Source: Escherichia phage BME3. From it: a DNA stretch of 64,000 nucleotides. The notes below the pieces were generated by a model. It saw only the letters and a list, made by a program, of their open reading frames with translations, made no database searches and had not been told where the DNA came from. This document shows positions 30,138-30,222 of the stretch, piece after piece (positions within the stretch are counted from its first letter, which is position 1; each line of letters starts with the position of its first letter). Where the stretch lies: the sequence record PP239276.1. One strand, written 5' to 3'. Position numbers and translations under genes: made by a program.

Positions 30138-30222
30138 TGGCGATGGATCAAGGATTTGAACCTTGCTAGAACTTTCGTTCACGGATTAACAGTCCGTCGC
30201 CCAACCACTAGGCCAATCCATC
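30138..30222 (-). tRNA. tRNA-Asn (GUU) with a long (about 15-nt) variable arm
   Basis: Acceptor GATGGAT/ATCCATC, anticodon arm ACGGA-CTGTTAA-TCCGT (same stem-loop as bacterial tRNA-Asn), variable arm GAAC-gaaa-GTTC, T arm CAAGG-TTCAAAT-CCTTG, discriminator G, CCA encoded. Confidence 0.5.

Follow-up and report, generated by a model that had tools for sequence, protein, structure and literature searches.

The 64,000-nucleotide (nt) stretch of Escherichia phage BME3 analysed here (PP239276.1; the window) contains, on the minus strand at 30138-30222, an 85-nt gene including an encoded CCA that was called as tRNA-Asn(gtt) by ARAGORN and that carries a long variable arm of the class II type. The gene scored 56.5 bits against the full-length Rfam tRNA model (RF00005; gathering score 29), and in the Rfam alignment 12 nt are inserted, precisely at the variable region. 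In minus-strand orientation, it runs GAUGGAU-UG-GCCU-AGUGGUU-GGGC-G-ACGGA-CUGUUAA-UCCGU up to the end of the anticodon arm and continues as GAACGAAAGUUCUAG-CAAGG-UUCAAAU-CCUUG-AUCCAUC-G-CCA, in which the 15-nt variable region GAACGAAAGUUCUAG consists of GAAC-GAAA-GUUC followed by UAG. Both the minimum free energy and the centroid fold were a cloverleaf with the additional hairpin GAAC/GAAA/GUUC (-29.5 kcal/mol, z = -2.6). The window phage is a phi92-like E. coli myophage (Justusliebigvirus, Stephanstirmvirinae) whose top match was phage ECGD1 (99.3% identity), and the syntenic gene of phi92 is already annotated as tRNA-Asn.

All parts of the tRNA could be placed on the minus strand from the fold and the sequence. 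The 5' strand of the acceptor stem (GAUGGAU, with G1-C72 and A2-U71) lies at 30216-30222 and its 3' strand (AUCCAUC) at 30142-30148, the two strands covarying in orthologues. They enclose a class I-like D arm at 30199-30213 (GCCU-AGUGGUU-GGGC, a 4-bp stem with a 7-nt loop without positions 20a/20b), the anticodon arm at 30181-30197 with the anticodon GUU at 30188-30190, the variable region at 30166-30180 and the T arm at 30149-30165 (CAAGG-UUCAAAU-CCUUG), which is also recovered by Rfam. Within the variable region, which is backed by the fold, the Rfam insertion and compensatory changes, the hairpin occupies 30169-30180 with its GNRA loop at 30173-30176, and the unpaired UAG on its 3' side occupies 30166-30168. 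The discriminator G73 is at 30141 and the encoded CCA at 30138-30140. We thus confirmed two points of the initial annotation, namely the anticodon arm ACGGA-CUGUUAA-UCCGU with GUU and a discriminator G (by ARAGORN and the sequence) and the 15-nt variable arm with its 4-bp stem (by both folds, the Rfam insertion and the orthologue fold described below); the re-fold recovered the cloverleaf with the arm hairpin and no standard 4-5 nt variable loop.

Conservation of the hairpin was assessed in related phages. Sequences with at least 99% identity to the 85-nt gene were found in 52 GenBank phage records, and 133 of the 154 matches covered at least 80% of the query. In divergent orthologues the arm size was unchanged, the loop was GAAA in all and the stem pairs were compensated: the stem reads GAGA/UCUC in a Klebsiella phage, GAGU/ACUC in Salmonella PVP-SE1 (Vequintavirinae), GUUC/GAAC in phAPEC8 and ESCO13, and GUC/GAC or GUUC/GGAC in T5-like Demerecviridae. 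RNAalifold, run on nine orthologues, independently predicted the same hairpin with compensatory changes in three of its four pairs, within a consensus cloverleaf of 7/5 acceptor/T architecture. Covariation was measured in 28 distinct viral sequences that all have 15-nt variable regions and align without gaps. The three inner arm pairs were paired in 27-28 of the 28 sequences, with 10-17 double changes and four to five pair types each, which is covariation at or above that of the anticodon and T stems in the same alignment; the observed score was matched by 0 of 500 shuffles, and slid registers collapsed. Among viral long-armed sequences, the first loop base was G in at least 90%, the last loop base was always A and the base directly 3' of the arm stem was always C. 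The GNRA loop itself was rejected as a unique signature of long-armed tRNA-Asn, as phage Ser and Leu tRNAs have it in their arms just as often. Overall, the arm hairpin is kept by compensatory substitutions across Stephanstirmvirinae, Vequintavirinae, Demerecviridae and many uncultured phages.

These results also bear on the suspicion, raised initially, that the arm is a single oddity or an assembly error, which was not borne out: more than 150 GenBank relatives carry the gene and about 700 further phage records a related form of it, and compensatory changes keep the hairpin. An artefact unique to the BME3 genome, be it a misassembly, a pseudogene or an intron-like insertion, has a negligible probability. 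Such an artefact would fit the lack of annotation of the tRNA-Asn gene in some GenBank relatives, but dozens of phages that were sequenced independently share the identical sequence, and the arms of divergent orthologues are compensated; moreover, the cloverleaf is intact, CCA is encoded and the open reading frames (ORFs) that overlap the gene are merely 47-49 amino acids long and unsupported. Four records labelled as Campylobacter phages (MG065639, MG065645, MG065656 and MG065689; 146 kb) were also among the relatives. Over 800 bp in the tRNA region they share 93% identity with the window, for which reason they are probably E. coli phi92-like phages with a wrong host label; in MG065656 (phage C3), identity across the tRNA-Asn gene is 100%.

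The textbook rule for bacterial systems is that long variable arms occur only in Leu, Ser, Tyr and selenocysteine (Sec) tRNAs. The spread of the long-armed tRNA-Asn was evaluated by scanning for an Asn anticodon loop, UGUUAA-NCC, with a canonical T arm downstream of it and the spacing between the two enlarged by 6 nt or more; the resulting frequencies depend on the chosen pattern and on database redundancy, and cellular genomes were scanned for long spacing only. Among the matches listed from IMG/VR, 114 of 121 were ARAGORN tRNA-Asn genes, which comprise at least 76 unique sequences on many different scaffolds, with variable regions of 11-19 nt that are mostly GNRA-capped. When normal and long spacing were both allowed, the 120 stretches listed divided into 87 normal and 33 long (27%). 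The Demerecviridae form of the gene, taken from the T5-like phage Lindwurm and not from T5, matched 695 GenBank phage records, including Tequintavirus, Epseptimavirus, T4-like Klebsiella and Enterobacter phages, Serratia CHI14 and Pseudomonas jumbo phages.

Cellular genomes gave a different picture. Across 185,579 bacterial and archaeal species genomes (one per species), the long pattern yielded 112 matches on 106 contig stretches, but just 20 of the matches were called as tRNA-Asn: nine of these are archaeal genes that contain canonical introns, eight belong to phage-like tRNA arrays and three are solitary, which leaves about 11 non-archaeal long-armed tRNA-Asn genes. The eight array-borne cases belong to arrays of 8-21 tRNAs within 8 kb, and one is identical to a viral contig; such arrays are typical of phage DNA binned into metagenome-assembled genomes. 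Host or prophage copies of the window gene were looked for as well and rejected, as neither the gene nor a close match was found in 5,426 complete E. coli genomes. The long-armed tRNA-Asn is therefore conserved and widespread, with nearly all of its occurrences in phages. The initial annotation was right on the rarity of such an arm, but the restriction of long arms to Leu, Ser, Tyr and Sec tRNAs fails in phages. The cellular scan also returned a recurrent verrucomicrobial match, which was discarded as a long-armed tRNA when it proved to consist of 3' half-tRNA fragments. On 17 Verrucomicrobiota contigs from metagenome-assembled genomes, the 3' half of a tRNA-Asn (CUGUUAAUCCGCC-UCAG-GGCGGAUC, followed by the T arm, the 3' strand of the acceptor stem and GCCA) comes immediately after a small ORF ending in ...REKALKSGQGRAWLK and is sometimes found in tandem repeats or adjoining an intact tRNA-Asn 3' end. 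This element looks like attachment-site duplications or a split tRNA gene.

Long arms were not limited to Asn in the same viral loci. They were present in 15 of 101 Thr tRNAs (nearly all UGU), 10 of 47 Cys, 14 of 120 Met and 7 of 49 Trp, compared with 1 of 98 Lys, 1 of 108 Arg, 0 of 71 Gln and 0 of 81 Gly. The converse case was observed too: about 64 of 145 unique ARAGORN tRNA-Leu genes have a short (<10 nt) variable region and are class I-shaped, and 55 of the 64 keep A73. In the literature, including the main reviews of tRNA identity and non-canonical tRNAs but with subscription journals mostly outside the search, no description of a long-armed phage tRNA-Asn or of its spread was found. An earlier notice is possible, for example in papers on the T5 group from the 1980s. 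The gene was previously labelled plain tRNA-Asn in phi92 and many relatives, and the long-armed design is apparently undescribed.

The gene belongs to a phage tRNA cluster at 28518-31395 on the minus strand, which is supported by ARAGORN, Rfam and the phi92 annotation. ARAGORN found 16 tRNA genes in the cluster and Rfam one more tRNA-like match; CCA is encoded in every tRNA gene, and 30138-30222 is the sole gene for tRNA-Asn. In the direction of transcription, the surrounding order is Lys(UUU), Tyr(GUA), Asn(GUU), a 90-nt tRNA-like spacer and Thr(UGU). A predicted sigma-70-like promoter (TTGTCA-16-TAAACT; 9 of 12 positions, a consensus match only) lies upstream of the Lys-Tyr-Asn run at 30477-30504 on the minus strand, and stronger predicted matches to the sigma-70-like consensus lie upstream on the same strand at 30893-30922 and 31034-31062. 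Asn codons make up 5.46% of codons in the long ORFs of the window, with AAU at 32.6 per 1000. As the Asn codon usage of E. coli is about 3.9%, this points to a translational demand for a phage tRNA-Asn.

Three other RNAs of the cluster were unusual. The spacer between tRNA-Asn and tRNA-Thr (30048-30137, minus strand) has a tRNA-like fold, which is closed by an 8-bp stem and contains an internal hairpin together with a T-arm-like element, GCAGG-UAUCGAAU-CCUGU; the fold has z = -3.3, and 0 of 200 shuffles were as stable. It has no CCA and no Rfam match at E <= 1, and could be either a degenerate tRNA or an element involved in processing. An 82-nt tRNA-like gene at 30941-31022 (minus strand; Rfam 38.6 bits), which was missed by ARAGORN and has no annotation at the syntenic place in phi92, combines a 7-bp acceptor stem, a 7-nt linker in place of the D arm, a normal T arm, G73 and CCA with an anticodon-like loop CUUCUAA (UCU, Arg) and a variable-region hairpin CCGA-GUAA-UUGG that has a GNRA loop. 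Lastly, the tRNA-Ser(GCU) of the phage (30523-30608, minus strand) has a variable arm, C-GUCG-GAAA-CGGC-GU, of 15 nt, which is unusually short for a serine tRNA and equal in size and in its GAAA loop to that of tRNA-Asn.

The identity features of the window tRNA-Asn were compared to those of Asn, class II and non-canonical tRNAs. The anticodon G34 U35 U36, A37, a canonical T loop, G73 and CCA are all in place, as are the tertiary nucleotides (U8, A14, GG in the D loop and GGUUCAAAUCC), and the Levitt pair would be a non-canonical G15-G48. Anticodon-arm positions 28-43 are identical to those of E. coli tRNA-Asn, the host sequence being confirmed in 5425 of 5426 genomes. Two features depart from the Asn type: the variable region has 15 nt instead of 4-5 nt (4-6 nt in short-armed phage tRNA-Asn), and the first pair is G1-C72 instead of U1-A72. 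The variable region has a class II shape (at least 10 nt with a stem-loop), whereas the isotype is not Leu, Ser, Tyr or Sec and the D arm lacks the 3-bp stem and enlarged 20a/20b loop of class II tRNAs; its 4-bp stem, which includes U13-G22, has its nearest counterparts in class I tRNAs. Ser-type ends are incomplete, with G73 and G1-C72 but A-U and not G-C at 2-71. Tyr identity is contradicted by G73 and U36, where A73 and GUA would be expected (A73 in 66 of 68 phage tRNA-Tyr), and the 7/5 architecture differs from the 8/4 or 9/3 of allo-tRNAs.

Similar conclusions apply to the viral population. G73 was found in 75 of 81 long-armed viral tRNA-Asn (93%) versus 95% of short-armed ones, U1-A72 in 43 of 81 (53%) versus 73%, and the Ser-type combination of G1-C72 and G2-C71 in 13 of 81 versus 14 of 73. 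The long-armed Thr, Cys and Trp groups likewise keep the discriminator and first base pairs of their own isotypes, which argues that the long-armed tRNAs are working isoacceptors for the amino acid of their anticodon. U1-A72 is typical of bacterial tRNA-Asn and is a GatCAB determinant, and direct charging by the E. coli asparaginyl-tRNA synthetase (AsnRS) does not need it. In E. coli, a GUU anticodon together with G73 suffices to transplant Asn identity, and G73 is an antideterminant for the tyrosyl- and leucyl-tRNA synthetases (TyrRS and LeuRS), while G1-C72 and G2-C71 are conserved in bacterial tRNA-Ser (PMC9976931).

Judged from these features, the gene most likely encodes a working phage tRNA by which AAC and AAU are decoded as asparagine. 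Going by established identity rules, the host AsnRS would charge it, TyrRS and LeuRS would be blocked by G73, and A2-U71, the short D loop and the three unpaired nt 3' of the arm would make it a poor substrate for the seryl-tRNA synthetase (SerRS). It would supplement or replace host tRNA-Asn during infection, when phage Asn codon use is heavy and host tRNA-Asn is a target of immune nucleases. As to the arm, we regard it with about even confidence as an entrenched structural legacy of a tRNA with an ordinary decoding function. The arm would then be a structural module of a phage lineage of class II-shaped tRNA-Asn, which is the weakest step of the proposal; it probably came from a Tyr- or Ser-like scaffold or from an early insertion, and it would be retained since the fold now depends on it, with no separate catalytic or signalling role. 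Several observations weigh against this account. The arm of the phage's own tRNA-Ser(GCU) is equal in size and loop, and therefore arm length alone does not exclude SerRS. The D arm in the clade of the window is class I-like, which makes entrenchment less obvious, and the strict retention of the arm in this clade may point to a function of its own. The near-absence in cells together with the high frequency in phages is easier to explain by a phage-specific benefit of the arm. Finally, in no phage did co-resident Tyr, Ser or Leu genes turn out to be recent paralogues, and the proposed origin of the arm is therefore not demonstrated.

Two origins had been put forward in the initial annotation, an insertion into an Asn tRNA or a class II scaffold retargeted to an Asn anticodon. 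Either may apply, as the evidence points both ways, and lineages may differ in their history. The insertion is favoured by the Asn-type ends (G73, and U1-A72 in about half) and by the class I-like D arm of the window tRNA, which disfavours a retargeted scaffold, and the body of some long-armed genes shares up to 85% identity with that of short-armed tRNA-Asn genes. The population as a whole has class II affinities: in the D arm, viral long-armed tRNA-Asn are similar to long-armed Thr and to Ser and Tyr tRNAs but not to short-armed tRNA-Asn, and many of their D arms are class II-like; in the acceptor stem, Tyr and Ser come closest and short-armed Asn ranks fourth. Their arm geometry (0-1 unpaired nt, 3-4 bp, a tetraloop and 3-5 unpaired nt) is closest to that of phage tRNA-Tyr and differs from that of phage tRNA-Ser, which has 0-2 trailing nt. 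GUU is one substitution away from both Tyr GUA and Ser GCU, and tRNA-Ser already has G73. More generally, the identity rules suggest that the isotypes in which long arms are frequent (Asn, Cys, Thr(UGU), Trp and Met) are all one anticodon substitution from a class II tRNA and have an identity that resides largely in anticodon and discriminator. A recent duplication of the adjacent tRNA-Tyr gene was excluded, the two genes being 59% identical, no higher than unrelated tRNAs. Which co-resident tRNA is nearest to the long-armed tRNA-Asn varies among phages over many isotypes, and adjacency to tRNA-Tyr is weakly enriched (7.3% versus a background of 4.3%; small, redundant numbers).

An alternative explanation, which we consider possible but less likely, is that the arm is an anti-defence shield which sterically blocks or mis-registers host nucleases that cut the anticodon stem of tRNA-Asn, and that the phage thereby keeps a host-identical anticodon arm, as needed for AsnRS and decoding, on a nuclease-resistant tRNA. 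Steric interference is plausible because position 44, from which the arm projects, adjoins the 3' strand of the anticodon stem. In the PARIS system, AriB cleaves at 40|41, with predicted contacts of its second subunit to positions 16-17 of the D loop; E. coli tRNA-Asn(GUU) has been validated as a secondary target, and the Lys, Thr and Asn tRNAs of T5 rescue in combination (PMC12409363). P2-OLD cuts both strands of the anticodon stem at a paired CNG motif, tRNA-Asn included, and here too phage tRNA variants rescue (PMC12445682). The window tRNA-Asn, host-identical at 28-43, shows no evasion by anticodon-arm substitution: both UAAUC|C and the CNG motif are present, and sequence changes offer it no escape. 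At the equivalent locus, T5 has a short-armed tRNA-Asn with a mutated, mismatched anticodon stem, which would be an alternative escape route. A protective arm would also fit the near-confinement of the type to phages, the clustering of Lys, Asn and Thr genes in the window and the frequency of long arms in phage tRNA-Thr(UGU), the other shared target of the Toprim nucleases. However, tRNA-Lys(UUU), the prime target of AriB and PrrC, is almost never long-armed, long arms also occur in Cys, Trp and Met tRNAs, and neither nuclease paper mentions the variable arm (PMC12409363, PMC12445682). An either-or relation between the arm and loss of the CNG nuclease motif was looked for in viral tRNA-Asn and not found, as the C28/G42 motif is kept equally often in long-armed (78%) and short-armed (70%) sequences. 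In addition, the T5-like phage Bas34, which has its own tRNA-Asn (arm type unverified), still needed the short-armed tRNA-Asn of T5 to escape PARIS. The PARIS-tested T5 gene was itself dismissed as a member of the long-armed type, being a 78-nt gene with a short loop, and the PARIS rescue experiment is therefore no test of the long-armed structure. The broader version of this idea, that phages evolved, probably more than once, an additional class II isotype (long-armed Asn and, more rarely, Thr, Cys, Trp and Met) whose arm is a counter-defence device, is similarly possible but doubtful.

Two further explanations concern what the tRNA does apart from faithful decoding, and both appear unlikely. 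The tRNA could be a decoy or handle, made mainly to titrate a tRNA-binding protein (a nuclease, modification enzyme or sensor) through its arm and not to decode; we consider this improbable. The authors of the AriB study propose that overexpressed viral tRNAs may be competitive inhibitors (PMC12409363), the GNRA loop and the invariant C after the stem are conserved beyond the need for pairing, and other odd-shaped tRNA-like RNAs lie in the same cluster. Yet GNRA caps are no more frequent here than in the arms of phage tRNA-Ser and tRNA-Leu, all charging and decoding features (GUU, A37, G73, CCA, canonical T loop) are kept, and this is the cluster's only tRNA-Asn gene while Asn codons are abundant. 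Mischarging, which the initial annotation had raised as a possibility, seems slightly less probable still. It would require that SerRS, which ignores the anticodon and reads the long arm and G73, gives the tRNA a dual identity such that Asn codons are partly read as Ser. The tRNA does combine G73, G1-C72 and C11-G24 with a stem-loop arm whose size and GAAA loop are those of the phage's tRNA-Ser(GCU), from which a single substitution leads from GCU to GUU. These features are countered by A2-U71 in place of G2-C71, a pair that is essentially invariant in bacterial tRNA-Ser (89 of 97 phage tRNA-Ser; PMC9976931), by a 4-bp D stem and 7-nt D loop without the enlarged loop of tRNA-Ser, and by the nt that trail the arm (three in the window tRNA and 3-5 in the long-armed group versus 0-2 in most phage tRNA-Ser). 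More than half of the long-armed group has U1-A72, an Asn hallmark, and proteome-wide replacement of Asn by Ser at 5.5% of codons would be costly, yet the gene is conserved across families. Mischarging thus finds no support in the sequence: G73 counts against TyrRS and LeuRS, and A2-U71, the short D loop and, given the equal arm size of the phage tRNA-Ser(GCU), less clearly the three trailing nt count against SerRS.

Returning to the reading of the gene as an Asn decoder, we compared it with known systems. E. coli tRNA-Asn (asnT/U/V/W) shares GUU, A37, G73, the 7/5 architecture and anticodon-arm positions 28-43 with the phage tRNA, but it has the 5-nt variable loop AUGUC and U1-A72, where the phage has the 15-nt hairpin region, G1-C72 and a shorter D loop, and overall similarity is below BLAST detection. 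Bacterial class II tRNAs (Tyr GUA especially, Ser and Leu) have a comparable stem-loop arm of 13-15 nt, with the phage geometry nearest to tRNA-Tyr and G73 shared with tRNA-Ser; they differ from the phage tRNA in its anticodon and discriminator, which specify Asn, in its lack of G2-C71 and in its class I-like D arm. T5 tRNA-Asn(GUU) is likewise encoded by an enterobacterial phage in a large tRNA cluster but has 78 nt, a 5-nt variable loop and a mismatched anticodon stem, unlike the host-identical anticodon arm and extra arm of the window tRNA. At the Tequintavirus locus after tRNA-Cys, T5 (NC_005859; locus positions 5953-6030) has this short-loop gene with an extra ORF between Cys and Asn, whereas Lindwurm (locus positions 55-137) and many others have the long-armed gene 8 nt after Cys, and the difference is a gene replacement at a fixed locus within one genus.

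The nearest described analogues are the nematode nev-tRNAs and the bacterial and phage allo-tRNAs, which differ in architecture or identity. The nev-tRNAs have class II-type arms on tRNAs with class I anticodons but are eukaryotic nuclear and keep leucine identity, so that they mistranslate, whereas the acceptor ends of the phage tRNAs fit the amino acid of the anticodon (PMC3333845). Allo-tRNAs are non-canonical, have long arms and varied anticodons and occur partly in phages, but they have 8/4 or 9/3 architecture and Ser or Ala identity, in contrast to the regular 7/5 phage tRNA-Asn (PMC5389517). The type I tRNA-Leu of Streptomyces also shows that shape class is not rigidly bound to isotype and that one synthetase accepts both shapes, but it is the opposite case, a cellular class II isotype without its arm (PMC6614811).

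Phages thus break the rule that long variable arms occur only in Leu, Ser, Tyr and Sec tRNAs, and do so for tRNA-Asn in more than a quarter of the listed viral contigs (33/120). The genes are real, yet they are unannotated or lie under spurious ORFs in several GenBank relatives, which is a warning for annotation, and the long-arm signature flags phage-derived tRNA arrays inside metagenome-assembled genomes. If the tRNA is charged by AsnRS, nature would have proved that a tRNA-Asn of class II shape is acceptable to a class IIb synthetase, EF-Tu and the ribosome, which would be useful for tRNA engineering, where the arm could act as a handle or confer orthogonality. Should the arm protect from immune tRNases, it would be a new counter-defence principle, distinct from substitutions in the anticodon loop and stem, and would help to explain why phages carry their own tRNA-Asn and tRNA-Thr genes.

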